Source: Candidatus Micrarchaeia archaeon (GTDB lineage: Archaea > Micrarchaeota > Micrarchaeia > CABMEP01). From it: a stretch of DNA of 40,828 nt. Location: the NCBI GenBank assembly GCA_038886535.1, contig JAVZXS010000006.1:1-40828 (forward strand), written 5' to 3'. A program made the translations under genes and the position numbers. The notes under the pieces were generated by a model. The model was given only the letters and a program-made list of their open reading frames with translations. It had not been told where the DNA came from and made no database searches. Positions 1,061 to 38,774 of this stretch are shown in pieces. Position 1 is the stretch's first letter. Each line of letters begins with the position of its first letter.

Positions 1061-1447
1061 CTAATCAATTGTAAATGTTAACTGACCAGCAGGTATTTTT
1101 AACACATCACCAGCGTTTATTGTTTTGCTTTCAGTAAGGTTACTCCATGCAAGTAAGTTGCCACCAGTAGAGGCATCAAATAATCCAACTGCAACTATTG
1201 TTCCCCAGTCACCTGTTGCTTGTGGAAATGTAATATCAGAAGCGTTTGATGTTGAACCACCAGATGCCGCAGTGAGTGTTACAGATTGTCTTGCATAGCC
1301 ATTACCAGATACTTCTGTTCCACCGCCAGCATCAGTAGGAGCAGTTGTATAAAGTCCTACATATATCGTAGATGGTGGAGTAAAAGCTTGTCCTCTAAGC
1401 ATGTGGTCAATTACTTTGTTTTCATAGTAATCTGATAAGCCTGCCAT
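1061..1447 (-). CDS. Virion structural / fibre-associated protein
   Basis: Widespread phage family with YVGLYT..P.DAGGGTEVSG.GYARQ and ITFP.AT..WGTI...GLFDA.TGGNLL motifs; GGAGG SD. Confidence 0.7.
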   Translation of the reverse strand: MAGLSDYYENKVIDHMLRGQAFTPPSTIYVGLYTTAPTDAGGGTEVSGNGYARQSVTLTAASGGSTSNASDITFPQATGDWGTIVAVGLFDASTGGNLLAWSNLTESKTINAGDVLKIPAGQLTFTID

Positions 1448-1459
1448 AGTTTTACCTCC

Positions 1460-1912
1460 TTAATTTAAAAGACTTAATCCTTTTAAATACAATTCCTTTT
1501 CAGCTTGTCTTCTTCTTACAAGCCCATTTAGTTTTTTACCACCAGCGTATACCCATCTTGTAAACTGTTCTGAAGCTTGATATAATTCCCCTTGATTTAT
1601 AAGCCTTCTTAAAGTAGAGGCTCTAAAAGCATATATTCCACAGTTGTATGAAAAGCTTATTAAAGCATCAAGCATATAGTCATGTATATCAACTTCTATT
1701 AACGAATTAATTACAAACTCTATGTTTTTAAGGGTCTTTAATAGCATTTCTTCAGCTTGTTCTTTTGTAAATATTAAACTACCCCATGTGTCTTGCCAAG
1801 TCTTGCCAAGCACATGTCCATACCCTATTGTCCAATAACCAGCAGGGCATAAATAGGGTCTTGCAGAAAATCCTTCAAATGCTTTTACTAAATCTAAACA
1901 TTTTTTTGTCAT
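1460..1912 (-). CDS. Endolysin, GH24 lysozyme
   Basis: FEG..PYLCPAGYWTIGYGH catalytic motif (E-x8-C-x5-T), DALISFSYNCG, and WVYAGGKKLNGLVRRRQAE. Confidence 0.93.
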   Translation of the reverse strand: MTKKCLDLVKAFEGFSARPYLCPAGYWTIGYGHVLGKTWQDTWGSLIFTKEQAEEMLLKTLKNIEFVINSLIEVDIHDYMLDALISFSYNCGIYAFRASTLRRLINQGELYQASEQFTRWVYAGGKKLNGLVRRRQAEKELYLKGLSLLN

Positions 1913-3500: not shown

Positions 3501-4442
3501 TTACAGTATTCTTTGAACCAAAACATAACCAGAGCTATTCTGTGGGAATTCAACTGTTCCAAGTGAAGTCCATTGTGTAGTTGTGTCTCGCCAATCACAA
3601 GATAATCCAAAGTAGTTAGGATATGTATTTGTTGTTCCATATTTGTCCAAAAACCCTATTATACCTTTATAAACAGTCAAATTTCGTATTACATAAAAAC
3701 CATGTATAATTGTAGACCCAAGAAAGAATGCCGAAAGGGTCGTATAATAAGAAAAAATGTCAACTGCATTTCTACCAACATCCGCAACAATAAAAGCATT
3801 ACTGTAAGTAGTATTGTTAGGGTTTAACAAAACATAATCATTAATCCCTCCACTTGTCCCACCAGTATTACTTGGCACTATCCACATCATATACTCAGTA
3901 TTACTTTGAGTTGCAATTCTCAAGGGGACATTTTGAGTGCTACTGAATGTTATCTTTGCCACTTCCCCTACTGCAAGAGGATAATCATTTCCTGTCTGAT
4001 TGTAATAAGCAACTGTATCTATTGGATTTTCAAAGCCTTTGATACTGATTGCAAACCATCCTGAAGCTAATTTGCCATCAGCCCCTGCAACAGGAATTGT
4101 ATTGGCAGTCGGTGTCTGTGAAGCATGATAGCCATCCACCTTATCTGCATTTGTTGCATTTGTTGCGTTTGTTGCACTATTAGCAACGCTTACTTTAGAT
4201 ACCCATTGAGTTCCATCGTATTGTTTAATTACTCCATTTGTAGTATCAAGCCACACTATTCCTTGATATGGTGCATCAGGGGGTGTGCTACCAACATGAA
4301 CTACTTTGGCAAGTTGTTGAAAGTTTGCATCAAGATAATTTGCTGGAAGGGCTTTACCTATTACATCTCCACCGCTATCTGTTGCATTTTGTAATCCTGA
4401 AGTGTCAAGATTTTGAAAGTTATATGGTAGCTCTATTGGCAT
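3501..4442 (-). CDS. Tail fibre / receptor-binding protein
   Basis: GIVWLDT..G.IKQYDGTQW, ATNATNATNADKVDGYHAS and TIPVAGADGKL fibre motifs; beta-rich C-terminus. Confidence 0.75.
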   Translation of the reverse strand: MPIELPYNFQNLDTSGLQNATDSGGDVIGKALPANYLDANFQQLAKVVHVGSTPPDAPYQGIVWLDTTNGVIKQYDGTQWVSKVSVANSATNATNATNADKVDGYHASQTPTANTIPVAGADGKLASGWFAISIKGFENPIDTVAYYNQTGNDYPLAVGEVAKITFSSTQNVPLRIATQSNTEYMMWIVPSNTGGTSGGINDYVLLNPNNTTYSNAFIVADVGRNAVDIFSYYTTLSAFFLGSTIIHGFYVIRNLTVYKGIIGFLDKYGTTNTYPNYFGLSCDWRDTTTQWTSLGTVEFPQNSSGYVLVQRIL

Positions 4443-4443
4443 A

Positions 4444-4788
4444 CTACCACCCCATAAGTATTAACCACCCTGTTTTAGCACTTGCCATTGATGTAGGGAA
4501 TGTTATTTTAGTTGCAGTTATTGTCGCACCTAATGTTGTAGGGTCAATTGCATAAGGAGTTGCAGAAAAAGCAACAGGAAAAGTATATTCAAGGGTTCCT
4601 GAAATGTGTTTAAAGTTGTTTAGATAAACTATTACCATCTTCATATAATCCCCTTGTATTGGCATAAAACATGTCGCTGTCCCTGATGCGCCTGTCCCTG
4701 CGGCATTGAGAATTGTAGCTGCACCTGTAGGTTTTAATGGGTAATCATTTGTTACTATACCATCTGTTCTAAATGAATAAGTTGGCAT
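4444..4788 (-). CDS. Putative virion structural protein
   Basis: GGAGG SD; beta-rich, YTFPVAFSATP fibre-like motif. Confidence 0.55.
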   Translation of the reverse strand: MPTYSFRTDGIVTNDYPLKPTGAATILNAAGTGASGTATCFMPIQGDYMKMVIVYLNNFKHISGTLEYTFPVAFSATPYAIDPTTLGATITATKITFPTSMASAKTGWLILMGW

Positions 4789-4805
4789 TTTAATACCTCC
4801 TTACT

Positions 4806-5231
4806 TTATTTTGGTATCCCTGATGGGATTTCTTGTCCACCTGCTGGTGGTGTTGGCATACCTGTCGGTGTTGGCATACCTGTTGGCATACCACCTCCTA
4901 TGCCACTTAAAAACTCACTTACTACTCCACCTAAATCCTTACCTGATGATTTCTGTAACATTTCTTTAGGTATTATTTTTTCAAGTTTGTTAACTATGCC
5001 TAATATCTCTTTACCAACATTAGAAGTTACTTTAAATATAGGTAAAGCTACCTCTTCCATAACTTTAAGACAACTTAATAGGGACATATACCCTATTTCT
5101 TCAAGGTTTTTCATATTAGGAGCTTCCATAGCTTCTGTTACTGGTGCAGTTTTATTACCAATAGTGCCTTCAGTTCCTTCTGGTAATGGTGGTAAATTTA
5201 CCCCCAATTGTGTTAACACATCTTCTGGCAT
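4806..5231 (-). CDS. Hypothetical protein downstream of portal
   Basis: TAATG-coupled to the portal; C-terminal GMPT repeats. Confidence 0.65.
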   Translation of the reverse strand: MPEDVLTQLGVNLPPLPEGTEGTIGNKTAPVTEAMEAPNMKNLEEIGYMSLLSCLKVMEEVALPIFKVTSNVGKEILGIVNKLEKIIPKEMLQKSSGKDLGGVVSEFLSGIGGGMPTGMPTPTGMPTPPAGGQEIPSGIPK

Positions 5232-6751
5232 TACTTTTTACCTCCTTTTTCTTGTTTATTAGGCATCATAGCCTCTTGTATTTTTAATGCCTCTATCTCT
5301 TTTACCCTTCTTACTATCTCCTCTTTCTTCGGTATTGGCAACAGGTCAATCACATTCTCAAGCGGTATTATACCCATTTCTGCAAGTGTTAATATTCTAT
5401 CCTCATAAGCCATTGCAGTAATAGGGGACGATGTATGTGCAAAAATATCAGCTTGCATTTCGTTACCTAACAAGGCACTAAATCTACTATCTACTAAGGA
5501 CTTTGCAGTTATATAAAGGGTCATCACATCTTCTATAAAGCATTCACTCTTTAGGGCAAGTTTCTTTAATGGTGCTGAGGCAAATTGAGCAAGTATTTGT
5601 GCATAGTTAGCACTTCTTACATTAGGCATTGGAGAACCTCTTAATATCCCTTCAAGTCCACTCCTTGATTTAAACACTTCTTCATACTTATTCAATATTA
5701 GAGCAAGTATATCAGGAGTTATCTTAGGAGTATATAAATCTATCTTACTTGTCGGATCTAATATCTCTATTACACTTGCAGGTATGTTTATCTTCTTCTT
5801 TATCTCTTCTGCCTCTATTGAATTCGTTAATCCACCTACTATTAATGGTGGCTGTATTAATAAATCTACAAGATGGTCAAGCCTTTCATAATATTCATCA
5901 AGTTTCTCAAATAACCTAATAAGATAAAATAACTCCGACATTCCATAAAATTGACCCTCTATGTTCCTCGGCTTAAAATGAACAAAGGGTAAAATTCCCT
6001 TAAGAAAACATTGCGACGCCGTTGCCCTCTCTACTATCTCATCTCCTATAAACTGCACCATCACCCAATCTTTCTTGTCATAATCATAATACCAAAGCTC
6101 ATCTACCTCTACTACATCTGTATACCTTCTCGGCATTATCCTTAACTCACTAACATCTAATGGCATTTCAGTTACAGAGGCATTCTGATTATCTACCTTC
6201 ATCAAAAACCTATACCTTACATCTACATCAGATGTATCTTCACTTGCCACTACAAATGTCCTACCTGCATACTTTTTCTCCGCATACCTTCTCGGTAAAT
6301 ATACTGTATGACATATAGCCTGATACTCATCTAAATCCTCATGCTCCTCATTTAACACACTGATAAACTTCGGAGATACAGGCTTCACCTTTACCTTATT
6401 ACCATCTATAAAGACCTTGCAAAAATAATCACCATACAATAACCCATTCATTATCCAATCATAAAACTTTATGTCCAACCCACTCCTAAAATAATACTCA
6501 TGCATATCCTTCACTAACAACTTCCTCTGCTCTAATACCTCATCACTTACCTTACTCTCCTTTAGGTCTATATCAAATATAATATTGTCAGGATAATAAC
6601 ACAGGCTCGTTACTATCTCAAGATGCGAATACAAGGGATTGTTCTTATCATTACCCAATACTATCCTCTTTAACTCATTGTAAACCCTCACCCTATCTTC
6701 TCTATTACTCTTACACTCACCCCTCATTAACAACAGCTTCTCATCTTCCAT
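5231..6751 (-). CDS. Portal protein (podovirus/P22-like)
   Basis: 506 aa; GLLYGDYFCKVF, LPFVHFKPRNIEGQFYGMSEL and SGLEGILRG motifs typical of portals. Confidence 0.8.
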   Translation of the reverse strand: MEDEKLLLMRGECKSNREDRVRVYNELKRIVLGNDKNNPLYSHLEIVTSLCYYPDNIIFDIDLKESKVSDEVLEQRKLLVKDMHEYYFRSGLDIKFYDWIMNGLLYGDYFCKVFIDGNKVKVKPVSPKFISVLNEEHEDLDEYQAICHTVYLPRRYAEKKYAGRTFVVASEDTSDVDVRYRFLMKVDNQNASVTEMPLDVSELRIMPRRYTDVVEVDELWYYDYDKKDWVMVQFIGDEIVERATASQCFLKGILPFVHFKPRNIEGQFYGMSELFYLIRLFEKLDEYYERLDHLVDLLIQPPLIVGGLTNSIEAEEIKKKINIPASVIEILDPTSKIDLYTPKITPDILALILNKYEEVFKSRSGLEGILRGSPMPNVRSANYAQILAQFASAPLKKLALKSECFIEDVMTLYITAKSLVDSRFSALLGNEMQADIFAHTSSPITAMAYEDRILTLAEMGIIPLENVIDLLPIPKKEEIVRRVKEIEALKIQEAMMPNKQEKGGKK

Positions 6752-7049
6752 CTATCTCCCCCTTCTCATCTATCGCATATAACTTAGCCTTAAACTCAGG
6801 CTTCACCTTTAACTCACCTATCACACTCCTACCATCTAAATCACTTTCACTCCTCGCTTCTACCCTCCTTAACCCTAACCCCATCCTCTCAAGCTCCCTC
6901 TCTATCTCCTTCTGCTTCTCACTCATCTCCTCCCTCCACTTCCTTATCTCCTCATAATTAGCCCTCTCCTTCTCATAATTCCTATTCATCTCCTCTATTA
7001 CCTTGTCATGCTCCTTTTTCTTCCCTAAATCCTTAATTATATACACCAC
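6741..7049 (-). CDS. Hypothetical charged protein upstream of portal
   Basis: GTG start with AGGGGG SD; overlaps the portal start. Confidence 0.6.
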   Translation of the reverse strand: MVYIIKDLGKKKEHDKVIEEMNRNYEKERANYEEIRKWREEMSEKQKEIERELERMGLGLRRVEARSESDLDGRSVIGELKVKPEFKAKLYAIDEKGEIDGR

Positions 7050-7138
7050 CTTCTTATACCCCCTTTCTTATGGTCAGTCCTCTCCATTGTCCCTATAAAT
7101 CTCACTCAATCAGCTCGCTCTTTTCAGCTTGGCTTCTC

Positions 7139-7320
7139 TTTTTTCTGGGGGGAGAAAAGCTCTGATTTTTTCTGGGGGAGAAGAGGCTCTAAAGCCACCC
7201 CATCCACCCACCCCCCTGTTGCCACTGGGTAACCAATCCCTACCGTAACTCTCTTCAGCTCAACTCTACTCATCACTCATCAACTCGTTCACTCATTCAG
7301 CAACTCACTCACTCACCAAC
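7139..7320. repeat. Non-coding repeats: TTTTTCTGGGGG(G)AGAA x2, C-tract, degenerate ACTC repeats
   Basis: Direct repeats near 7139 and 7166; CCACCCCATCCACCCACCCCCC at 7195-7216; CAACTC/ACTCA iterations at 7245-7320. Confidence 0.7.
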
Positions 7321-7640
7321 CCATAACCCAGAGTACCCAAGCCTTACTCATCTTACCCAGTGTCAAGATTTTGACGGTCTCTGAATGATATTTATAAGAG
7401 TAGATCAAGCAAGTGGGAGCAGGGAGGGAGATAGTAAAGAGATACTGAAATATTTTTTAAAATTATGTCAAGGGCAAGCTGTGAGTGATACAGTTGAAAA
7501 GATTTTGTCAAAATTTGCATTTTCATTTTGAGCAGTTTTTAGTGTTTTATCTCACGCGGAGCAGATGCTTTTAAAATTTGTGTCATAAGTCTTTTTTATA
7601 CTGCTATAAAAAAATCAAATTGGAAATATATAGAAAAGTA

Positions 7641-7669
7641 TTGACATTGATATATGAAAGTGGTAAAAT
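7641..7669 (+). promoter_or_regulatory. Sigma70-type early promoter with extended -10; leaderless transcript
   Basis: TTGACA (7641-46), 17 bp, TAAAAT (7664-69) preceded by TG. Predicted +1 coincides with the ATG at 7676. Confidence 0.8.
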
Positions 7670-7675
7670 ATAATT

Positions 7676-8929
7676 ATGAAAACAAAGGAAAAAATTATCA
7701 TAAGAGATAGGTTCGGGGAACTAAACCCCGAGCCAGACTTTGTGGGAGACAAGGTAGTCTTTTACAAAGTCGTAAACCCCCAACCCTCAATGAGGGAAGG
7801 GGAGAAATGGGTTATTGCACCCGTCTCTATTGCCGAGACAGGCAAGAAAGACAAGCGTGGTAACCCTATTTTTATTTGTAGGATCAAGCTACTCCAAAGG
7901 GTTGAGTGGCTTGACTTTGATAAAGCTGTTGTTTCCCCAGAGGGCATCTGGGAAGTCCCAGTGTTCTCTGGGGATGTTTTTATTGAAAACAGAAAATTGA
8001 GGGAAGAAAGGAGGGAAGTCGTTGAGCATATCAGTAACAATCTCATTTACTTCCCTCAGTTTTATTATATATTGAAATCCTATCTGCAGTCTCACGGTGA
8101 GATTGTAGACAGGATTTCTTTTTTTGAAATAGCTCAGGGGAAAACAAAAGAATGGCTTACCCCTGAGCATGTAAAAAAGGCTTTTGCTCTATATGAGCAA
8201 TACAAGGCTTTTATAGAGCAAGAGCAAAAAAAAGAACAAGAGAAAGAGGCTAAAATTGCCTCTGCAATTGCTGAAGGCTCAAAGATAGAGCTTTCAGAAG
8301 AGGCAATTATTAGCCTCTTTTTATTGAATTCTATTAACACTATCCTTAAGGGAGACACCCTTTGGGATAGTGTTTTTGATGTTGGGGGTGTTAGGTTTCA
8401 ACCAGCACCCACCACTGAAGACAGTGACTTTCCTGTTCCTACCTCTTCAGGAGAGGCAACAGGAAAGATTAAATATATCTTAAACTCCCTTGCCAAATGG
8501 GCATGGGAAAGGGACGCGAAATACCTTCTCAATGCCTTAGGGGTTAAAGCTCCTAAGCCAAAGACTATTTGGCAAGAGAAAATAAGGCTTAGCTTTAGTA
8601 GTTATCGGGGAATATTTGAAAGATATACTACTGAAGCTGAGGCAAGGGTTCAACTTGAGCCTAAACTTGATGAAGCAATTCAGCAAGTAAAAGTTGAGCC
8701 TATAATTTATACATTCCCACACCTTACCATTACATTCAATCCTATCATTACTTCTTATGTTAAAAGAGAAATTGACTTAGAAGAAGGCATCGGAGCAAAG
8801 GATGCTACATGGTATGAGAATACCTATCTTGTGGCGAAAATAGGAGTAGATTGGGAGTGTAATCTCTCTTTTGGAGAGTTGCACCCCGAAGTTATAAATT
8901 CAATAAAGGAGGCGTTACAATGCAAATAG
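7676..8929 (+). CDS. Early hypothetical protein (417 aa)
   Basis: Long ORF directly after the promoter; no recognisable motif. Confidence 0.8.
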   Translation: MKTKEKIIIRDRFGELNPEPDFVGDKVVFYKVVNPQPSMREGEKWVIAPVSIAETGKKDKRGNPIFICRIKLLQRVEWLDFDKAVVSPEGIWEVPVFSGDVFIENRKLREERREVVEHISNNLIYFPQFYYILKSYLQSHGEIVDRISFFEIAQGKTKEWLTPEHVKKAFALYEQYKAFIEQEQKKEQEKEAKIASAIAEGSKIELSEEAIISLFLLNSINTILKGDTLWDSVFDVGGVRFQPAPTTEDSDFPVPTSSGEATGKIKYILNSLAKWAWERDAKYLLNALGVKAPKPKTIWQEKIRLSFSSYRGIFERYTTEAEARVQLEPKLDEAIQQVKVEPIIYTFPHLTITFNPIITSYVKREIDLEEGIGAKDATWYENTYLVAKIGVDWECNLSFGELHPEVINSIKEALQCK

Positions 8930-9111
8930 TAACACTAACAAGGCCAGAAATTGCCGAAATTGAAAAAAAGGGTTATATCGGCAATCAGGGCTGTATTATT
9001 GAAAAGAGAGGAGATAAATATTATCTCCTCTCTGTGATTGCATGGGATTGTTACGCTCCAACATCATGGTTGGAGGAAGAAATTCAAATAAAGGAGGAGC
9101 AAGATGAGTAA
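8920..9111 (+). CDS. Early hypothetical protein
   Basis: AAGGAGG SD; overlap-coupled. Confidence 0.7.
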   Translation: MQIVTLTRPEIAEIEKKGYIGNQGCIIEKRGDKYYLLSVIAWDCYAPTSWLEEEIQIKEEQDE

Positions 9112-9460
9112 TTTATTAGTAATCTCAAACCACCCACCCGAAAGGTGGGCGGAAGAACAAAAAGAGGGATGGGATAGAATTGATTACATCCCATTCCCTC
9201 AGGTGCCAGCTACTGCTTCTTTTGAGCAAGTGGTAGAAATTGCAACTCCACTTGCTCGTGCCATCGGGGAGTGGCTCAGCCAGAACCCTGATGGCAAGGT
9301 ATGTTTACAGGGGGAATTTACCCTCTGTTACATACTTTTTAGAAGCATTGATGACTACATCTTTGTCTTTCCAACCACCGAGAGAGTGGTTGAAGAAAGG
9401 CAGAAAGCAGATGGAAGCACTGAAAAAATTGCCACCTTTAAGTTTGTAAGGTGGCGTTAA
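9104..9460 (+). CDS. Csx20/Csx15-like protein; putative cOA ring nuclease (anti-type III CRISPR)
   Basis: ISNHP..W..EQ, IPFPQVP, VCLQGEF, PTTERVVEE and K..TFKFVRWR resemble the small CRISPR-associated Csx20-like family. Confidence 0.65.
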   Translation: MSNLLVISNHPPERWAEEQKEGWDRIDYIPFPQVPATASFEQVVEIATPLARAIGEWLSQNPDGKVCLQGEFTLCYILFRSIDDYIFVFPTTERVVEERQKADGSTEKIATFKFVRWR

Positions 9461-9462
9461 GT

Positions 9463-9507
9463 AGAAGCTTGCAGGGGATAAAAACCCTGCAGGCTTCTTT
9501 TATTTTT
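9463..9507 (+). terminator. Rho-independent terminator
   Basis: AGAAGCTTGCAGGG-loop-CCCTGCAGGCTTCT followed by a T-rich tail. Confidence 0.75.
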
Positions 9508-11038: not shown

Positions 11039-12457
11039 TTAGAATGGTTCATCTGTTCTTAGAGCATACAGAGTTGTGTTGCTATCACGAATAGCAACGC
11101 AAACTCCTTTGTCGGTCAATCTCTTTAGGATGGTTTTAATTGTGTTGTAGTTGAGGGTAGTTTTTTCTTCAATTTCTTTTGGAGTTAATGCTCCATGTTT
11201 CTTTAAGGTCGCAATGACTAATTGCGTGTTACTCATGCTATCATCTTGTTCTAATGTAGCTTGCTTAATTTGAACTCCACCGTTTGAGTATGTCAACTCG
11301 TATACAAATGGCTTGGTGTATAAAGTTGATACATTGCACTTTTTATGGACGAACACTAATTGAAAACTGTCAAGTGAAATAATTTTCTTTTTAAGTTGCC
11401 AAACATTTCTGGCTAAATTGTGGAAAAATACAGATCCGAACACTGTTTCGTTTTCAGAATTTTTCGGTGTGTGTCCTATCAAGAGAATTGTTTTTCGTAA
11501 CTTTTGCAGGCACTGATAAAAATTGACTATACTTGCTACTTCTAAAACATCACCGCACGCAGGAGCAAGACTGTCAATGATGACTAAATCAACATCATGT
11601 TCTGCAATGATATTTGCGATACTTTCAAATTCAGTCTGTAAGGGCATGTGGCAAGCTCTGTATTTAATTGAAGCATCAATTTTATAAGATTTGTGCAACA
11701 TTTTTAAAAAGCTCTGGACAACTATTTTATTATTCTCGTAATCAAGATACAATGCTTTTATTGGCTTTGCTCTAAGTTTCATTGATGATTGCAACTCTGT
11801 TGAATGTCCAAGCATAGCAAAACATAGTGCAATTGAAGACTTTCCTGTTCCACCTTCTGCGAAAATGAGATTGATTGTATCTTGGATGATAAAAGGTTCT
11901 ATAAGGTATGAATATGTGCTTTCTGTAATTGTTGATATGTCTATATCTTCAACAGCTTCTCCTTCACGCAATAAAGTATACAGCCTTTTTTTCCAATACT
12001 GAATTAGAGCTTTCCAGTTGATGCCGAAGTCCTTCTCTGGCATTGCTTCTTCACATTTTTTCACAAGTTCAGATGTAGTTCTTTCTGAATACAAATTATA
12101 CTTGCCTTGCCAAATAATTTCACTTTTTGCGGCGGGTATGTTAGTGATGATTTCAAGATGCATAATACACTCATCTGTTTTGACTTTGATGTTTGTTGAG
12201 TTGAAAATTAATCCATTCCATGACAACTTGAACCCTAATGGTGTTTTGTCAGCTTTAAATTCATACTCAGATACCATTGTGTCATGTAGGACTGCTATAG
12301 GAATTATGTCGGTAATGTCTACTTTTGTTATTCCATTTTCAACAGCTTGCTCAAAAATAATATCCCTAATTGCATCCTTTGTTTCTGCTTCAATCATTTT
12401 CTCATCAGAATATATTTTCCCATCTCTCTCAAATGTATATTTCACAAAAAATTTCAT
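11039..12457 (-). CDS. RepA/AAA_25-type RecA-fold replicative helicase with C-terminal winged HTH
   Basis: Walker A AEGGTGKS, YLDYEN, Walker B LVIIDSL, IGHTPK, FGS..F..LAR; C-terminal LTPKEIEEKTTLNYNTIKTILKRL. Confidence 0.8.
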   Translation of the reverse strand: MKFFVKYTFERDGKIYSDEKMIEAETKDAIRDIIFEQAVENGITKVDITDIIPIAVLHDTMVSEYEFKADKTPLGFKLSWNGLIFNSTNIKVKTDECIMHLEIITNIPAAKSEIIWQGKYNLYSERTTSELVKKCEEAMPEKDFGINWKALIQYWKKRLYTLLREGEAVEDIDISTITESTYSYLIEPFIIQDTINLIFAEGGTGKSSIALCFAMLGHSTELQSSMKLRAKPIKALYLDYENNKIVVQSFLKMLHKSYKIDASIKYRACHMPLQTEFESIANIIAEHDVDLVIIDSLAPACGDVLEVASIVNFYQCLQKLRKTILLIGHTPKNSENETVFGSVFFHNLARNVWQLKKKIISLDSFQLVFVHKKCNVSTLYTKPFVYELTYSNGGVQIKQATLEQDDSMSNTQLVIATLKKHGALTPKEIEEKTTLNYNTIKTILKRLTDKGVCVAIRDSNTTLYALRTDEPF

Positions 12458-12915
12458 TTCTCCCCCCTTAGTGCTTGCTCTAAATCATCTGCGGTTCCAT
12501 ACTTTCCACAACCAAAACAATAAAATGTGTCTGTCTCAAAATATATCCTGCAAGATGGAGTTCTTTCAAGATGAAATGGACATAATATCATTTTGCTTTT
12601 CATTTTCACATTATACCTCTCTAAAACGCTCAGAATTGATTTAGAGGCTTTTTTCTTTTTGACCCTTATATCACCACTTCTTTTCTCTTTGCAATATCTC
12701 CTGAAGTCTCTCGTTGCTTCAGCAGGGCTTTTTTCTTGACTATAAGTTCTGGAACATCCAATCTCATTCCATTCGGGAGATATACAGATGCCATCATCTT
12801 CAGGATAAGGCAAAATCTCTCTCTCAAGATTGAGAAGTTTAATTCTCAAGTCGCAGATTAGGTCAAAATGGTCTTGAGAGAGAGACTGAATAAGAGCTTT
12901 AATTAGTTTTTCCAT
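12454..12915 (-). CDS. CHC2 (DnaG-type) zinc-finger protein without a TOPRIM domain
   Basis: CPFHLERTPSC...FYCFGCGKYG. Confidence 0.85.
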   Translation of the reverse strand: MEKLIKALIQSLSQDHFDLICDLRIKLLNLEREILPYPEDDGICISPEWNEIGCSRTYSQEKSPAEATRDFRRYCKEKRSGDIRVKKKKASKSILSVLERYNVKMKSKMILCPFHLERTPSCRIYFETDTFYCFGCGKYGTADDLEQALRGEK

Positions 12916-14135: not shown

Positions 14136-14330
14136 ATGATTAATGAAGCATGGGCATTATGGGTTAAAGAAATGCTTTTAAAGGCATTGGAAGATAAAAA
14201 GAATAGAGAAAACATAATTTTGAACATTATTAATGACATTGACAATGAGTTTGAGGAACTAAAGGAGTTTTATGAAGAGGAGCTAAGACAAAAGCAACAG
14301 AAAGATAAAAAGGGGGTAAGTAATGCGTAA
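14136..14330 (+). CDS. Hypothetical protein
   Basis: GGGGGTG SD; coupled within the operon. Confidence 0.7.
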   Translation: MINEAWALWVKEMLLKALEDKKNRENIILNIINDIDNEFEELKEFYEEELRQKQQKDKKGVSNA

Positions 14331-15273
14331 ATGGTCTCCAACGATGATTAATGCAACTAAAAAATGCAAAAGACATTTTGAAAAGAAATTTATAGAAGAA
14401 GCTCCTGCGGAAGTAATTATTCAGGAGTTTGAACAGGGTAAGCAGTATCATGAAATAGCAGAAAGGTTCCTTATAACAGGCAACGATGTGAACCTTCAAG
14501 GCTTAAACTCTGAAGTCCAAAAAGCATTAAAAGAAATAAAAAATATGGGTAAGCTATACATAGAAAAAGAGTTTGAGAATGAAATCATCAGGGGCATAGC
14601 AGATATTGTGATTGATAATGAGAATGAATGGATTGTTATAGACATAAAGAGTAGGTATGACAGCGATATATCTCAAGATGATTATGTTCAGCTTTATACA
14701 TATCTCTATTTTCTTCAACAAGAGCAAGAGAAAGAAAATGCACGCATAGGCATATTAGCACTGCATAATCAATTTCACCCTCTTCATATAGAGCAAGCTC
14801 AATATAAAACGCTTCAGGACTTGAAAGAATATGTTGAGCATCAGATAGAGCTTGCTGAAAAAAGAATACAACACATGAGAATTAATACTTCATATTGCAA
14901 ATACTGTGAATATATTCTCTCTTGCGATGCTATCACTGAAAAGCCTGTATCAATAGAGGAAATAGCACGAAAGTATCTACAGCTTGAGCAACTTCTGAAA
15001 CAATATGAGTATACTTTGCGGGAGCATGTGAACATAACAGGGCAAAACATTGTTGTAGATGATGTTGAGATTGGCATGCACATTAGGAATGTTACAAAAA
15101 TTGATGAAGAGCTATTATTAAAGATAGCAAAAGAGCAACAGATACCATTACATACTATATACAAACCTGATATAACGAATATTAAAAAACTTGCTAAAAA
15201 ACACCAAGAGCTTGCTAATGCAATTAATATTGAACAAGATTACTATTTCACATCAAAGAAGATAAAGGGATAG
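14323..15273 (+). CDS. PD-(D/E)XK Cas4/RecB-like exonuclease
   Basis: WSPT..C, RGIADIV, VIDIKS, QLYTY, CKYCEYILSC (1+3 Cys pattern of Fe-S nucleases). Confidence 0.8.
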   Translation: MRKWSPTMINATKKCKRHFEKKFIEEAPAEVIIQEFEQGKQYHEIAERFLITGNDVNLQGLNSEVQKALKEIKNMGKLYIEKEFENEIIRGIADIVIDNENEWIVIDIKSRYDSDISQDDYVQLYTYLYFLQQEQEKENARIGILALHNQFHPLHIEQAQYKTLQDLKEYVEHQIELAEKRIQHMRINTSYCKYCEYILSCDAITEKPVSIEEIARKYLQLEQLLKQYEYTLREHVNITGQNIVVDDVEIGMHIRNVTKIDEELLLKIAKEQQIPLHTIYKPDITNIKKLAKKHQELANAINIEQDYYFTSKKIKG

Positions 15274-23389: not shown

Positions 23390-23663
23390 AAATACCTCCC
23401 AAAGTGTTTTCTAATTTCTCTACATTTTCTAAATCCTCATCAAGACTTAATGCAGAACCAAAACTACTGTCTGCAATCTTAGCATTAATCTTTGCAACTT
23501 CTTTCACTTCCTTAATGACTAACAAAGGAGCTTTAATACTTTCAATGTCTACTATTTTACCCTTATTCCTTGCCTGAATAATATCATCAAGTAAATTTAA
23601 AGCAAGAGTGTTTAATTTGTCCACCATGATTGTTAAAGTATCTTTGTCATTCTTTTTCCTCAA
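23376..23663 (-). CDS. Hypothetical helical protein (terminase small subunit candidate)
   Basis: Size and position upstream of terL only. Confidence 0.45.
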   Translation of the reverse strand: MRKKNDKDTLTIMVDKLNTLALNLLDDIIQARNKGKIVDIESIKAPLLVIKEVKEVAKINAKIADSSFGSALSLDEDLENVEKLENTLGGIFDEN

Positions 23664-26600
23664 GGTATTCCTCCACTCTTTTTTGTTTAAGCATATACTC
23701 TGTTAAATGATACTTTAGTGATTGTGGTGATACATAATAGCCACTCTCAAATGCTTTTCTCATGTAAGCCATTGCAGTATCGTTATCACCCTTCACTAAC
23801 GATTTTGCTATTGCTTTAGAATACTCATTAACTTGTGTCTTATAGTTATCTACACTCTTTTTAATTGCTGTTATATCTTCATAATACATGTTTAAAGTTG
23901 GTGTTGTAAAGCCTAAAGCATAAAGCCACTTTTCGTGTTCGGGTATTTCATTGGGAAGATTAAAGTATACTTCAATTATTTTTTTCTTTAATGGATTTGG
24001 CATTCTTTGAATATCCATCAATGTTATATGAGGCTTGCCAAATATATCAGTAGGCAATCCTTCTGTAAAGAGTGTATATGCCCCTATTGCCCTTTTAACC
24101 ATTGTGGGAGATACTCTCTTAATTAATTCTGAAGTATCTATGTCTTCTCTACCCCATAGTGATTTAGCTCTTACCATTTCAGTAATTATAGGGAACATTG
24201 CCGCATCAAATAGCTCAGGAGCGCCAAAAGTTATAGAACCATCAAGTCCTATTTCAGCGAGTAAACCTTTACGAACAAATAAAGGAATTTCCTTTTTAGC
24301 CTCATTAACCTTTAATCTAAATTGAGGGTCTTTTTTGCTTACTATTCCTATAATTATCTCAATTAGACTATCTAACAGTGGTATACCTTCCAACCCAGAA
24401 AGTGCAATTGCCAATGCCAATGACGAATAGAATGCTTTTTTATTAGGATAAATATGAGAAAGAAAGTTTATATAGTTTAAGATATAGCTCTTAAATATAA
24501 AGAATGGTGCTAATAATCCTCTACCTATATTTGGTCTATTAGCTTGCGAATACAGAAATTGAGTATTAAAGATAAAATCACTTGTAAACTCATATAAAGC
24601 CTCTCCAGTTATACCCTTGTTTTTGCCTATCAGGTATGCAGTAATTGCCGCATTCAATCTATTAGAGCGTTCTGACAAATTACCAAATATTGATAAAGCC
24701 TTTAAGGCTTTGTCTCTAAAGCCTATATCTTTGTGCATTATTGCTTCTAATTCACCTTCTTTAATCATTCTAATCAGAATGTTTTTCAGTTCAGGTTCTA
24801 TGTATTTTGCTTCTGTAACTGTATCTAAGAACCTTTTACCTCTTATAAAATCTGCTACCGCATCTTTGTATATCCTAAACTCAAGTGGAGTGGCTTTAGC
24901 AAAGGCTTCTAATCCTTTTTCACCATCAAGATAATAAGCATACCATATGGTTGTCATAAATCTTTGTGATAAGTTGACAAACATAAACGCAGGCTTTAAT
25001 CCGAGATAATACAGATACATTAATGCTCTTACTCTAACATTGAAGGCATTTTCAAAGTCTTTTCTACCATAATAGTAGTCCACTAAGTCTCTTGCGTATA
25101 TATACAACTCTCCGTTTGTTTTAGCAATCTTTTCAAGTTCTTTTACGACATCAACATAGTAAAACTTTTTGGCTAATGCAAGGGGAACTGTATCTATATA
25201 AGACTTGACTATTTTTTCAACATCAATATCATACCCTGATACTCCCGCTCTTTTTGATAATCTACCTTTAGCGAGTATCTTTAAATATTCTTTATCTACT
25301 ATTTGTGTAAACTTCTTTATTTCTTCATTACTAACTCCTTTAGCTTCAAGATAAGCATCAAGCATAGGCAAATATCTATGTATAGTAGCAACAACAGAAG
25401 GATCTTTAACTGAAAAACCTATTAGATGACCTTCATTAACTCCTTCTCCCATTATTCTGTTAGCTTTACCTCTTTTAGTATCAATTATGAATACATTATA
25501 TCCCGAAAAGTCTATATTATTTTCTCTTGCATATTCAATTGCTTCGTTAGGTAACCCATTTTTCGTTATTTCTTCAGCAAACTTTTTAGCTTCAAGCATG
25601 GTATCAAAGGCTTCATAGTGTATCGTTACCTTGCCTTTCTTTTCATCAGGAACTCCTACCCATACTCCAAATCTACCAAGCCTGAAATGAGGAAGGTAGC
25701 CATTGATATAATGAGCCTCTATAAATTCATCTGCCTCTTGTTCAGTCCATCCAGCATCAAGCATAAACCTCTTAAGCCCTATCTTCTGAATATAGTCAAG
25801 AGCCTTCCTAACCCCATAGTAAGCCTTTATCTCTTCTTCTGTTAACCCTATTGCTTCAAGCTCATATCTCTTGTATGTTTTCTGTTGAGCATCTCCTTGT
25901 AATAGCAATCTATTAACTCTTGTTTTATCTTTAAGTTCTATATAAGGTCTTAAATACTCTTTAGCTTCATTGCTAATAACATTAGCCCTTGCATTGATTT
26001 TGTAAAGAGTTTTAGTTAAAGGCTTAATAACTTCATTCCACCAAGGCACTCTTAACATGCTTTTAGCTATACCTGTTATGTCTGATATTGCAGTGCCAAG
26101 TTTATCATAAAGCCTTTCATAAATTGGTGGAGCTTTCTTATTTAAACTTTCAAGAAATTTTCTATTAATGTCAAAATCTATATCCTCTATTGATAAGTCT
26201 TCTTCTGTTAAAGCCATATTTTGTATTTGCTCATACTTTTCAATTTGCTTAAGTTTTTTCTCTACTAATTCTTTAATTTTTGCTTGTTTTTCTAATGGAA
26301 ATTCATTTAATAGTTCCTCTATATAAATGAAATCTTGCGGTAAACTACCTGTTTGTATAGCTTCATTGTATTTCTCAACAATAGAATTTATTTGTTCTTG
26401 TTGAAGCATTTTTGCTTGCAATTTTGGAATATACACAAAATCAGCATTTTTTGTAACAATTTTATATAATAACTCAGTAACATTGGGTGCTATTAATGTG
26501 CTACCATCACTGACATGAAGACCTACTACTTCTACTAAGCTATCTAAAACTGCTGTTGAATTTTTATTCACAATTAAGTTTACTGTTTTAGATAAAGCAG

Positions 26601-29600
26601 GCATACTAATAAATGGCACTCTATCTATATAAATGTGGTTAACCTTACTTAATTGCGATAATTCCACATAAGGCACTGTGCTTTTATAATAGTATAATTT
26701 ATCTCCGATTTCTTTTAAATTACCGAGATTAATATGTCCAACATCTGATAAGGCTAATTCCTGATTAACTTTAACCAAATTCTCTACATTAGTAAATGGA
26801 GTGTTTTGAATACTCAAAAAATCAACTTCTTTTAATTTATCAAGCTTGACTTTTGCATTGCCTTTACCATTAATACTTATAACAGATGCTGAAGACAAAT
26901 TTTCTAACGATATAGTTCCTTTGGAAGAAAGGTAAGCTTTTGTAATTCTTTCTAATGATGGTAAGTCAATGCCACTATCAACTTCTATGTCTAATCCGCT
27001 TGGTTCTACACTTTTTAATTCAGGAAAGTAAGCAATATCTTTAAAATTTCTGCCCGCTTTAATTTCAATAGTATCAAACAAGTCAGATTTTAACTTTTCT
27101 ATTTTTGAAATATCTACTTCCTCATAGAGAGGAATGCCTGCTATTTCTAAAGCATTTACTTCTCCAAACAGCGTATCAACTGGCATTACATAAGGTATTC
27201 TAAATACAAAATCATCTTCTGCTGTAATATTATCAAGATTGATTATCCCATTGCCAACATATAGTGTATTATTTTCTTCAATAAAACTTAAAGCATCTTG
27301 TTTGTAAAGCCTATTGTTATATTTATCTGCAATTTTCTTAATGTTTTCCCTTCTTTCCTCAAATGACATCTCCAAAAGTCTATCTCTGTTTTCAAGCAGC
27401 TCTTGTCTCATTTTGATATTATTAACAAATTCTTCTCCTCCCTTAAACCATTTATCTTTTACAAACTTCAGTATAGGCTCAAACATTACTTCCTCTATAT
27501 CTTGTCCTTTACCAATTCTACCCCTTATCTCAGTAATTCTGTCACCAATCGTTACTACCACTACCCTTGGATTTCCATCTTCATCAACAAACATGTGTAG
27601 GTCTCTGTTTTCTAAATAGCCTTGTGCGGCATATCTAATACACCACCCTGAAGTGGTAACTTTATTAGATAAATGTTGCACTAAGCCAATTGCATTGTAA
27701 TAATCTTCTTTGGTAGCATATTTGGATTTATCTGGAAATGATAGCCATCTTCCTTTTACATTTATATCATTAGGAGTTCCAGCAAGCCAATATTCAGTAA
27801 ATAGCCTCTCCATGTGTTCTGAGAATATGTCAAAGTAATTCAGAACCCATTTTCCCTCTATTCTTCCTTCTACAAGTCTATTATAAAAGTCTCTTACTGC
27901 CCCTGCTATTGGTGGAAGTGGCTTCTTTTGAAGCGTTGAGCTTGAAAGTTTATCAACTCTTACTTCATTACCGTCAATATATACGACATTCTTAACTATC
28001 CTTTGAAACATCAAAATATTAAATGGAAGTGGTAAATCAAGCTCGTTTAATACATCAATCCAATCAAAATATAGTCTTTGCAGTGTTATGTTTTCATGTT
28101 CAAGGATGTTATCTTCAAATTGCTCTCTGTCTATTATTCTATTTTCAAGTTGTTGTAAGTAGCCTGCTGTTTCAAAATCAAGCTCTCCTCTTTGTCTAAG
28201 TCTTCTTAATTCCTCTATTTCTCTATTAATATCTGCAATTCTTGTTCTGTAATATAATGGATCAAAGTTTGCAACCTTGTTTGATATATCTGCCCAATAG
28301 TCCATTAATTTTTGTATTTGCTCAATTGTTAACTGTTTACCCTTTATGACATCATTAAGTGCCGCCATTACTTCAGTGTTTATATCAAATTCCTCTGCTT
28401 CTTTACTAATCTCTCCTAAATATCTATCCCTGTATTCTCCTCTTAATGCTTTATTAAAGAAAGTAGCAACATCAACATAATTAAATCCTTCTCCTCTAAA
28501 GAGATGGTTTAGAGATACAAAAAATGCTTCTATTCTCGTGTAGAGATTGTTTATCCAATCAGGTAGTTTAATGCTTCTTTGTAAATAGTTAGCAAACATA
28601 TCGCATCTTTTTTCTGCATTAGGTTCAAACTTTTCAAGCCTTGAAAGTTCCTGTCTTGTTAATAGTAGCTTTTCTACATCATGCCAAGCTTCATGTCCAA
28701 GAGTAGTAACATTCATATTAGATAAAGATACTGCAATCATAGAACGCCATTTTTCACCATCAAAGTAAACCCTTTGCATGCCTGCAATTTCAACAGTTTC
28801 TTTTAAATCACCTAATGCCCATTTTTTAGCTACTTTATCTAAAGCCTCATCATCTACCACAATTCTATCGGCAAGTATAATTTCCGTATCAGGAGATACA
28901 ACTCTTCTGACAATATCAAGCATTTTGGCAATGCCTGATGCTTCTATTTGGCTTTCTGTTGCTAATGCTATTTTTATACCTGTTTCTGTTTCAATAATTT
29001 GTCTATGGTCTCCGATGCCTTTATTGATGCTTTGATTATTTCTAATCTCGTAATCAGTCGTTTCTTCCCATATAATTTTGGTTTGTTGATAAGTTCTTGA
29101 GGCTTCATCTTTTAAGACCTCCATTTTGTTTATTAAATTAGCTTCCTCTAATGAGTAGCCTTGTAATACCTTCTCTATATTCCCTGATAATATCTTAAAG
29201 AAAGCTCTTAATTTTGTAGAGTTATCTTTATTTGCCTGTAAAAATCTTGCTATCTCTATTGCCTCTTTACTGAATTGCTTGCCAAATAGGTCTTGATTTT
29301 TGACAAAGGTATCAACAAGCATACCCATACTGTCTGCTCTTCTTACTATATCAACAGCTTCTGTAACATCTCCGAATACATCATATTTCTTTGCCTGCTT
29401 TTTAAAGTTTTTAGAAATACTTATAAACCTGTCATAAGCAGAAGATAGAGCGGTTAATACTTTTGCTGTAAGTTTATCTTCAGCATTATTAAGTAAGTCT
29501 ATAAGTTGCTGATTGTTATATTCCTTTGCAAGATTTCTTATTTTAATCTCAATATCTTCAGGCAAAGCTAACTGAAAACTGATTTGTTCTTGCCTTCTAA

Positions 29601-36818: not shown

Positions 36819-37384
36819 TACATTTTACTCTCTTGCAATTTGGTGAAAAACAGATTTTCAAGCAATCCCACAAGTTCGTATTGTTGGTCTAACAGTGCAA
36901 TTCTCTTGGCAAGGTCAATAGCAACTGCATCTGCGTATGTATCTGGTATTTCACTGTCATTTGCTGAAAGATTACCAGAGTTGTATCTAAATTCAAGTTT
37001 CAGTGTTCCATAAAGATAAGCTGAAGTATCTTTATTAGGAGTAGGATAAAAAGTAATAACCTTTGGTGGTATGAAGTTGTAATAGCATGGTGTTCCTTTC
37101 ATAGCATCTTTAAACACAAAATCTCCTGTGGCAATATGAAATAGCTCCTGCATTAGGTTATTCTCTTTAATAGCAACTCTGAATAATCTTTCAAATGGTT
37201 TTTGGAGAGTATAGCTCGGGTAATCTTTTAATACCTGAATACTATACTCTCCATAGTTTGCATTTGTAAGCCTGTTAACTCTATCTCTCGCTAAATTTAA
37301 ATAGGAAGCTAACGCCTCAGCAGGAGTAAACATCTCCACGCTATAATATGTTTTTGCAAGGCTTATGTAGTCGCTTCCTGTCAT
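36818..37384 (-). CDS. Putative head-tail adaptor
   Basis: YLNLARDRV, GTPCYY, ITFYPTP and IPDTYADAV motifs; synteny. Confidence 0.65.
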   Translation of the reverse strand: MTGSDYISLAKTYYSVEMFTPAEALASYLNLARDRVNRLTNANYGEYSIQVLKDYPSYTLQKPFERLFRVAIKENNLMQELFHIATGDFVFKDAMKGTPCYYNFIPPKVITFYPTPNKDTSAYLYGTLKLEFRYNSGNLSANDSEIPDTYADAVAIDLAKRIALLDQQYELVGLLENLFFTKLQESKM

Positions 37385-37694: not shown

Positions 37695-38774
37695 TTATAT
37701 TACTGATACTGCTGGGAAGCTCGTAACCTTAAAGCATGATACTGGTGCATCGCATACAAGTTGTCCACCAAACTTTAACGCACTTAAGAAAGCAAGTCTT
37801 CCAATGATTGTGGTATCATACCAAGGAGTTACAGTTACCATATAGCCATCGGCAAACTCAAATCTTAAGTGGTCAAAGTTGATGAAATATATTGTGTTAT
37901 CTGTAATATATGGGTCTGGGAATATAGCACATCCATTAACAACAACACCTGTTACTTCGTATTCTCTAATGGTGTCAATTTTAGCAGTATCAGCAATGAT
38001 ATACTTTTCAACAGATGTAAAGCTCTCAATTATCTTTTGCCAACATCCATAGGAAGTAAAGGCTATATTAGGTAATCCCATTGTTGAAGCGTCTTTGTTA
38101 AATTTAGCTAATGCTCTCATGACAAGAACATAAGCCGCTGGTGCATCATTAGTGGTGTCATACCCCAAATCAGTTGCCGCATCATATACTTTAGAGTTCC
38201 ACCAAGAGTATGTGCTTCTGTTAATGTTGCCATATGTAGCATTTACTGTTCCATTGTCAATTATGTCTTTGATACCATAAAACTTTGTAGTATTTTCAGT
38301 TCCAGATACTCTTGTTCCAAGTAGGTCTGTCGCAACTGTATTCATAAGGTCAAGCCATGTTCTTGAAGCCATTGCGGCAACATTGTCAACGAGCATATTA
38401 GGATTACCAGAGTTGTAAGCCTGAACCTCAAAGTCTGTTACATAGAGAGTTGTAAGGTAAAGGTTCGCATAAAGGGTCATCATTTGTGTAAAGTCTCTGT
38501 CAATATCAGTAGGAACATTGAACTGCATATTGTAATCCAATCTTTGCACTCTGTTTGGGATAGTGCCTGTTACAGGTTGAGATACAAATGGAAAACCAAT
38601 AGGTCTTGATGTGCTATCTGCTAATAGTTTTCTTGTAAATGGTGAAAGTTTGCCGATATTCTGAGCAACTATGTAGTTAGGAATACCTCTTGATAAGGTA
38701 TTAAGAAAATCAGTTGCTCCTGCCGCAGATGTTCTGTAAATACCATAAGGTGTTCCATAGTTAAAACTTGCCAT
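37695..38774 (-). CDS. Major capsid protein
   Basis: 359 aa; FYGIKDII..TYGNINRSTYSWW and IFPDPYI...IYFINFDHL; follows a scaffold-like gene. Confidence 0.8.
   Translation of the reverse strand: MASFNYGTPYGIYRTSAAGATDFLNTLSRGIPNYIVAQNIGKLSPFTRKLLADSTSRPIGFPFVSQPVTGTIPNRVQRLDYNMQFNVPTDIDRDFTQMMTLYANLYLTTLYVTDFEVQAYNSGNPNMLVDNVAAMASRTWLDLMNTVATDLLGTRVSGTENTTKFYGIKDIIDNGTVNATYGNINRSTYSWWNSKVYDAATDLGYDTTNDAPAAYVLVMRALAKFNKDASTMGLPNIAFTSYGCWQKIIESFTSVEKYIIADTAKIDTIREYEVTGVVVNGCAIFPDPYITDNTIYFINFDHLRFEFADGYMVTVTPWYDTTIIGRLAFLSALKFGGQLVCDAPVSCFKVTSFPAVSVI

Follow-up and report, generated by a model that had tools for sequence, protein, structure and literature searches.

Cyclic tetra-adenylate (cA4) is a second messenger made by the Cas10 protein of type III CRISPR systems on detecting phage RNA. 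The closest described relatives of the protein analyzed here belong to the Csx20 family. One cas-linked Csx20 is reported to be an active cA4 ring nuclease (Hoikkala et al. 2025, PMC12409355), and the same survey describes Csx20 as a five-stranded sheet flanked by helices and counts it in 4 of 28,114 phage genomes. Homologues of csx20 have also been described in anti-CRISPR (acr) operons repressed by the ribbon-helix-helix (RHH) protein Aca14 (bioRxiv 10.64898/2026.07.27.740549; NAR 2026, PMC13551039); by the account in the preprint, that study assayed the regulator and not Csx20 (bioRxiv 10.64898/2026.07.27.740549). Inhibitors of type III CRISPR make up three families among the more than 80 Acr families given in a 2024 source (PMC11662646). 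Here we analyze contig JAVZXS010000006.1 of assembly GCA_038886535.1, deposited as Candidatus Micrarchaeia archaeon, which we examined over its entire length of 40,828 nucleotides (the window) and which is a complete tailed bacteriophage genome. A first-pass annotation, made from the DNA letters and their translations, had singled out a gene at 9104-9460 as a Csx20/Csx15-like candidate viral ring nuclease directed against type III CRISPR; its background statement that Csx20 binds or degrades cyclic oligoadenylate (cOA) agrees with the published work on this family (PMC12409355). We conclude that the gene most likely, with a probability of roughly 0.6, encodes a cA4 ring nuclease that the phage uses as an enzyme against type III CRISPR.

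Assignment to the Csx20 family

The open reading frame (ORF) in question and its translation signal are as follows.

9104-9460, forward strand: Csx20-family (CARF-like) gene with an ATG start, 118 amino acids; predicted cA4 ring nuclease, on the basis of profiles, homologues, conservation, the structural model, fold matches and the alignment with a cas-linked homologue
9092-9097, forward strand: Shine-Dalgarno sequence AGGAGG, read from the sequence, 6 nucleotides before the ATG of the Csx20-like gene

A hidden Markov model search of the 118-amino-acid protein against PADLOC and NCBIfam profiles returned Csx20 models. The best of them is the PADLOC Csx20 model PDLC01397 (E-value of 4.1e-15), in which residues 5-118 align with profile positions 3-112 of 114. 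Three more PADLOC models that contain Csx20 match with E-values of 1.9e-8, 2.9e-7 and 1e-6, and the first of these matches falls on the C-terminal Csx20 module of a CARF-HEPN-Csx20 fusion model. Judged by its sequence, the phage protein belongs to the Csx20 family. The assignment by eye in the first-pass annotation was right, being borne out both by a full-length profile match and by similarity of fold. The same annotation had held AcrIII-1 (DUF1874) to be a different family, which agrees with the lack of any Pfam match for the protein: searches of Pfam and of PHROGs gave no family at E <= 10, and the Pfam search found no DUF1874 domain at that threshold.

A cas-linked homologue was found by a tblastn search against plasmids. 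It is a 115-amino-acid "CRISPR-associated protein" encoded on a Runella plasmid, where it directly follows a type III-B gene series in the order cas6-cmr1-cas10-cmr3-cmr4-cmr5-cmr6-csx2. Over residues 4-118 of the phage protein the alignment with the Runella protein shows 27% identity, and the two have the blocks NHP, PFPQ, GE.T, TTERV and F.FV..R in common.

These blocks correspond closely to the motifs that had been noticed at the outset (SNHP, PFP, QGEF, TTERVVEE and F.FVRWR). All five are present in the protein, with ISNHPP at residues 7-12, PFP at 30-32, QGEF at 69-72, TTERVVEE at 91-98 and FKFVRWR at 112-118, and they coincide with the blocks conserved throughout a large family; they are not chance resemblances. 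Twelve residues are invariant in an alignment of 28 homologues (N9, H10, W15, I26, F31, P32, G70, T91, T92, F112, F114 and R118), and all are kept in the phage protein. Across 124 diverse representatives, which are the single-domain-length subset of 150 listed representatives at 50% identity, 26 positions are conserved at 70% or more, and the phage protein carries the consensus residue at every one of the 26. An exhaustive search recovered 554 cluster representatives at E <= 0.001, 113 of them at E <= 1e-10 and four at E <= 1e-30. A precomputed tag, PF27247, is attached to all of 29 relatives (the window protein included) except one fragment, as well as to all 120 relatives in a separate listing; none of these proteins is informatively named.

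One of the matching PADLOC models is a mixed one, "Csx15/20/peptidase", with an E-value of 4.3e-12 that is weaker than that of the Csx20 model; no model for Csx15 by itself is listed. The match raises an alternative in which a dimer of the phage protein would bind cA4 tightly and sequester it with little or no turnover, in the manner of Csx15, which is described as an effective cA4 binder with very slow nuclease activity (bioRxiv 10.64898/2026.01.21.700848). Binding and catalysis are not separable from sequence and fold. We nevertheless consider such a cOA sponge unlikely. The best profile is that of Csx20 itself, and the tested Csx20 is reported to have fully degraded cA4 (PMC12409355), while all residues conserved family-wide, N9, H10 and R94 included, are intact in the phage protein. 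Additionally, the Csx15 preprint calls sequestration a poor strategy against the large amounts of cOA made by type III systems, and it reports that no Csx15 was observed in phage genomes (bioRxiv 10.64898/2026.01.21.700848).

No match at E <= 1e-3 was obtained by tblastn in 50,697 deposited phage records, which places the four phage Csx20 genes of the published survey at a greater distance from the window protein. A single-protein scan of viral contigs gave no relatives, and a narrow alignment and the protein P0231, used as queries against species genomes, gave short spurious matches only. A sequence-profile search of the PDB returned nothing at E <= 10.

Predicted structure

We modeled the protein with AlphaFold2 from an alignment of 28 sequences, with a predicted local distance difference test (pLDDT) score of 95.2 and a predicted template modeling (pTM) score of 0.82. 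The model places strands at residues 3-8, 25-30, 65-69, 90-100 and 106-117 and helices at residues 17-20, 40-60 and 72-81. This is a confident prediction of a five-stranded Rossmann-like (CARF-like) sheet flanked by helices, as published for Csx20. The conserved polar residues fall at strand ends and in loops: S8-N9-H10 after strand 1, Q69-G70-E71 after strand 3, and T91-T92-R94-E98, K108 and R118. In the model they would lie on the usual ligand face of a Rossmann-like fold.

The ten best matches of the model among solved structures are all SAVED/CARF sensors, at sequence identities of 5-15%, and the match scores for this fold are modest but coherent. No match at E <= 0.001 was obtained with Foldseek against the PDB, Crn1 (7YGH), the published best match of Csx20, is absent from the three fold-match lists, and no DUF1874 structure is among the fold matches. 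A library of viral models gave one unnamed protein of 128 amino acids (E-value of 1.8e-4, template modeling score of 0.66).

A second alternative is that the protein degrades or binds a different nucleotide signal, such as the cyclic trinucleotides of the cyclic oligonucleotide-based antiphage signaling system (CBASS) or another messenger sensed by SAVED/CARF proteins, and thus counters a defense other than type III. However, a SAVED unit is a fused pair of CARF-like units, and the fold matches are therefore silent on the ligand. It is in favor of this alternative that Csx20 is reported to degrade cA3 at ten times the enzyme concentration (PMC12409355) and that the Cas10 and RAMP searches tied no type III system to the phage. 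The tested Csx20 was nonetheless specific for cA4 at low enzyme concentration, and the Runella homologue is encoded in a type III-B operon after the gene of a CARF effector. We regard a different signal as improbable, and cA4 as the likely substrate.

In each of two family members, P0121 (293 amino acids) and P0163 (304 amino acids), a single chain contains two complete Csx20 units in tandem. The NH motif has been lost from the first of the two units of P0163, and the tandem form amounts to a SAVED-like pseudo-dimer built from Csx20. Since covalent double-Csx20 tandems exist, a dimeric working unit of the family is suggested by analogy.

Relatives and their genomic neighborhoods

We examined the contigs that encode relatives of the phage protein. 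Homologues with 40-50% identity are encoded on six IMG/VR contigs, which have no other gene in common with the window phage. Scans with PHROGs identified phage hallmark genes on four of them (L010, L011, L012 and L014), with portal, terminase and capsid proteins of different families; L013 has the gene layout of L014, and L015 gave only helicase, nuclease and phosphoadenosine phosphosulfate (PAPS) reductase matches. A further 14 metagenome loci, with 29-46% GC, contain relatives at 46-67% identity, apart from L117 and L118, whose matches cover fewer than 35 residues. We scanned 124 flanking ORFs from 16 loci with PADLOC, leaving out L109, L117, L011 and L012 as near-duplicates of L108, L116, L113 and L116, respectively. 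None of the 16 loci has type III cas genes within 6 kb of the relative. The neighbors do include DNA methyltransferases, a viperin-like radical-SAM gene and a type IV CRISPR effector module. Wherever the context of a close relative is readable, the gene lies on a phage or another mobile element, and the family occurs on contigs co-assembled with bacteria and on contigs co-assembled with archaea.

Two of these neighborhoods deserve description. In L015, a contig of 53 kb (coordinates 1863-2210 and 4396-7072), about 1.5 kb separates the Csx20-like gene from a complete type IV effector module, which comprises Csf1/Cas8, Cas11, Csf2/Cas7 and Csf3/Cas5 with E-values of 1e-40 to 1e-72. In L013 (484-1266) and L014 (5955-6737), a viperin-like radical-SAM gene directly follows the Csx20 homologue, with a PADLOC pVip match at 2.5e-12 and a PHROG radical-SAM match.

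The assembly to which the window belongs contains a second Csx20-like gene, on contig C31 (213-581; locus L005). Its product has 122 amino acids, is 41% identical to the phage protein and shares the motifs. The gene follows a C-terminal fragment of ribonucleotide reductase and is near two further genes, one for a Cas3-HD-like protein of 442 amino acids and one for a coupling protein of the TraD/VirD4 type. Contig C7 has a paralogous pair of TraD and HD genes. The C31 locus is probably a conjugative element. The family was not found in any of 60 relatives of the archaeon to which the assembly is attributed.

Such neighborhoods allow for a third alternative, in which the protein serves the regulation of its own element or warfare between elements, either tuning a CRISPR or signaling system borne by the element or disarming that of a rival. 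The type IV module of L015, the viperin-like gene of L013 and L014, and the TraD/VirD4-like and HD-domain genes around the C31 copy would all fit such a role. The window phage, on the other hand, has no CRISPR or cOA-signaling genes of its own, and the relatives occur in such diverse neighborhoods that no single dedicated partner would fit them. Type IV systems are not known to signal through cOA. We find this alternative very unlikely for the window phage, for which we favor action against the type III system of a host.

The first-pass annotation had supposed that the phage captured a host ring nuclease. Such a capture is conjectural; every close relative with a readable context lies on a mobile element. 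A bolder proposal is that the clade is a large dedicated family of nucleotide-signal destroyers of mobile elements, that Csx20 arose there and was adopted later by type III loci, and that the mobile form may be broader (cA3 plus cA4) or faster. We hold this to be doubtful. An origin on mobile elements with later adoption has also been proposed for AcrIII-1/Crn2.

The three-gene unit

The features around the Csx20-like gene, in addition to the Shine-Dalgarno sequence given above, are listed below.

7641-7674, forward strand: two overlapping sigma-70-like promoter sites, predicted; TTGACA-17-TAAAAT with TG, and TTGATA-16-TATAAT
7676-8929, forward strand: first gene, 417 amino acids, no known family
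8920-9111, forward strand: second gene, 63 amino acids, no known family; overlaps the gene upstream by 10 nucleotides and the Csx20-like gene downstream by 8 nucleotides
9463-9498, forward strand: intrinsic terminator, predicted; 14-bp stem with 8 G-C pairs, then a run of T

From this arrangement the Csx20-like gene is predicted to be the last in a compact, translationally coupled three-gene unit (7676-9460), its start overlapping the end of the 63-amino-acid ORF. Each of the two promoter-like sites agrees with the consensus at 11 of 12 positions, there are only five such sites in 40 kb, and the pair is located within the 625-bp gap directly before the 417-amino-acid ORF. The total number of promoter-like sites is not above that in shuffled sequences, and therefore strength and position alone count for the promoter argument. 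The -10 elements end 2-7 nucleotides before the annotated ATG of the 417-amino-acid ORF, which leaves two readings: a leaderless mRNA, or a true start of this gene further downstream. The terminator is the strongest in the genome, with a fold of -27.5 kcal/mol (z = -6.2) whose stability was reached by none of 200 shuffled sequences. The statement of the first-pass annotation that the gene lies inside the first transcription unit thus stands as regards the unit, with its promoter pair and terminator, while "first" and "early" are only inferred; early expression of the unit is plausible from the sequence.

The gap before the unit (7050-7675) contains short direct repeats of the TCACTCA type, a pair of 25-nucleotide repeats at 7139-7190 and several inverted repeats, which could be regulatory or related to an origin. 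Our search for operator-like repeats in the promoter gap gave several short repeats and nothing interpretable.

The 417- and 63-amino-acid proteins have no PHROGs, Pfam or PADLOC match and no usable protein-atlas match. Their genes were not kept beside relatives of the Csx20-like gene in a synteny comparison, neither of them being present in any of the 14 metagenome loci. With orphans as neighbors and a function read from its sequence, the Csx20-like gene might be a passenger devoid of a present role, or the Rossmann-like fold might serve an unrelated function. This we consider scarcely credible, given that all 26 consensus residues are kept in a family of 554 cluster representatives, that the gene has its own Shine-Dalgarno sequence in a unit with a promoter and a terminator, and that it recurs in unrelated phages. 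A maintained role, for which the cA4 ring nuclease is our preferred reading, agrees better with these observations.

The phage genome and its host

The window is the entire contig C6 of a 1.14-Mb assembly of 40 contigs. A 127-bp repeat is shared by the contig ends and gives a circular assembly of about 40.7 kb. Genes recognized by profile matches are the following.

1064-1447, reverse strand: GP4-type fibre protein
1463-1912, reverse strand: phage lysozyme, muramidase-type
11042-12915, reverse strand: DnaG-type zinc-finger protein and AAA helicase
14323-15270: PD-(D/E)XK exonuclease, the only cas-like match on the phage contig
20955-22760, reverse strand: large terminase
23650-31866, reverse strand: giant protein of 2,739 amino acids with a ddrB-like ParB domain (E-value of 1e-34) and a weak DarB-like antirestriction match
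36821-37384, reverse strand: SU10-type adaptor
37698-38774, reverse strand: major head protein
elsewhere on the phage contig: RusA

Because of the 127-bp terminal repeat and the hallmark genes, the contig is a complete tailed phage, and the Csx20-like gene is therefore encoded by a virus. No tRNA genes were found on the contig. The initial remark that the genome has no cas operon is true of the phage: searches of the assembly for Cas10/Csm1, Cas10/Cmr2 and RAMP proteins gave nothing on C6. The giant protein may, from its domain matches, be an anti-restriction protein injected with the virion, which would make it a second counter-defense candidate. It has relatives on contigs C35 (5.4 kb, 52% identity) and C9 (7785-13640, 25% identity) of the same assembly, and more fragments of related phages are present in the bin.

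The small-subunit (SSU) rRNA of the assembly is archaeal, scoring 1432 bits with the archaeal model and 1113 bits with the bacterial model. This result rejects a CPR-like bacterium, which the small genomes (0.5-1.6 Mb in each of 60 sampled relatives) had suggested; AlaRS proved too widely shared to place the bin. The bin has a coherent archaeal core of about 754 kb (contigs C1-C5 and C16, r >= 0.93), and its other contigs, about 380 kb in total, are foreign in composition. The tetranucleotide signature of C6 correlates with that of the core contigs at r = 0.60 only, whereas all 14 core chunks of 40 kb have r >= 0.895. Shine-Dalgarno-like motifs precede 15 of 34 long ORFs on C6, and 44-57% of long ORFs on C6, C8 and C9, in contrast to 5-12% on the core contigs. 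About a third of this "archaeal" bin is thus compositionally foreign, and at least three contigs are bacteriophage DNA; the small contigs of this metagenome-assembled genome are not to be treated as archaeal by users of the assembly. The bin does have CRISPR loci. Contig C1 carries a type I-B cas operon and an array of 31 repeats, and contig C23 (429-938 and 1127-2654) carries an array of 8 repeats, with a different repeat, together with a Csa3-type CARF fragment at the contig start beside the archaeal SSU rRNA gene.

A search with the terminase gave 28 phage records and a search with the fibre protein gave 49, and every named host among them is bacterial. The best terminase match is Hydrogenobaculum phage 1 (36% identity over 97% of the terminase), while species genomes contained no close relative of the terminase. 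We considered the co-binned archaeon as the host and rejected it on composition, Shine-Dalgarno use, the muramidase-type lysozyme and the bacterial hosts of the cultured relatives. Because of these features and of the lack of a spacer match, we take the window to be a bacteriophage that was binned together with an archaeon; the phage probably does not infect the co-binned DPANN archaeon. From the terminase match, an Aquificota-like thermophile could be guessed as the host.

Proposed function

The cA4 ring nuclease that we favor would act as follows. A strong host-type promoter would drive the gene, which is the last in the predicted coupled three-gene unit. Two copies of the Csx20-like protein would pair and form a shared cA4 pocket, in which S8-N9-H10, Q69-G70-E71, T91-T92-R94-E98, K108 and R118 would hold the ring and promote attack of the 2'-OH on the phosphodiester. 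Cleavage would yield inactive linear products of the A2>P type. If the bacterial host has a type III system, as this function implies, the enzyme would drain cA4, and possibly cA3, before the CARF-domain effector nucleases are switched on. The outcome would be an enzymatic anti-CRISPR, as in the case of AcrIII-1, with a different fold.

Several observations weigh against this proposal. The NCBIfam model CAS_Csx20 (NF040559) matches the protein with an E-value of 2.1e-8 and 34.5 bits, under the 70-bit equivalog cut-off of the model. As a control, we scored the cas-linked Runella homologue, which reaches 31.3 bits, and among 20 family members scanned just one, a tandem form, exceeds 70 bits. The NCBIfam model is narrow for these reasons, and the missed cut-off is therefore no evidence against membership in the Csx20 family.

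The remaining points concern the setting of the gene and the activity of the protein. No Aca-type helix-turn-helix (HTH) or RHH regulator is recognizable beside the Csx20-like gene with Pfam, PHROG, PADLOC or atlas searches; some acr genes are known without a linked Aca. The 88%-complete assembly, with its type I-B cas genes and the Csa3-type CARF fragment, yielded no match to Cas10 or RAMP proteins, and these searches link no type III system to the phage. Cas10/Csm1 was above cut-off in only one of the 60 relatives of the archaeon, and none of the 37 CRISPR spacers of the bin matches the phage. The published accounts of Csx20 available to us contain no assay of a phage-borne copy. Finally, the sibling family Csx15 binds cA4 well and cleaves it very slowly, and sponge and enzyme are not separable by sequence alone.

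Comparison with known systems

What is new in this case is one more Csx20, in an uncultured phage; the idea of a phage-borne Csx20 is already in print. The value is incremental in so far as the activity of Csx20, its occurrence in phage genomes and its position within acr operons have all been published. If active, the protein would be a compact (118 amino acids), thermophile-associated addition to the known viral ring nucleases and would support the view that Csx20 serves both defense and counter-defense in the arms race. Enzymes of this kind are practical off-switches for type III diagnostics and tools based on cA4.

The phage protein and Csx20 as defined by NF040559 and PDLC01397 have the same full-length profile, a size of about 115-130 amino acids, the motif blocks and the five-stranded fold in common, and by analogy a dimer and metal-independent cleavage of cA4 are expected in both. 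The founding members of Csx20 differ in having type III cas neighbors, which are absent in the phage; a type III context is not required for the assignment, as the 2025 survey counts phage copies. Relative to the cas-linked Runella protein, with which the phage protein shares 27% of its residues, the differences include T for S8, M for Q69 and F for W117 in Runella.

The csx20 genes of phages regulated by Aca14 are likewise Csx20 homologues of mobile elements in short promoter-proximal operons, and their authors propose a cas gene co-opted for counter-defense (bioRxiv 10.64898/2026.07.27.740549). In contrast to those operons, no RHH or HTH regulator is recognizable by the phage gene described here, and its partners are two orphan proteins. 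The viral SAVED ring nuclease (PDB 9r8s) and the SAVED/CARF sensors (8tl0, 8fm1, 9om7, 7qda and 6vm6) contain SAVED as a fused CARF-like pair within larger proteins, whereas the phage protein is a single free-standing unit, with 5-15% identity to them.

The comparison with AcrIII-1/Crn2 (DUF1874), the earliest known viral ring nuclease, concerns the job rather than the protein. Both would be small, dimeric, virus-encoded enzymes that destroy cA4 and so act against type III CRISPR, a role reported for AcrIII-1 (PMC12409355), and both families are represented on mobile elements as well as in cas loci. The family and the fold are different, and the phage-borne Csx20 would be a separate enzyme for the same proposed task.

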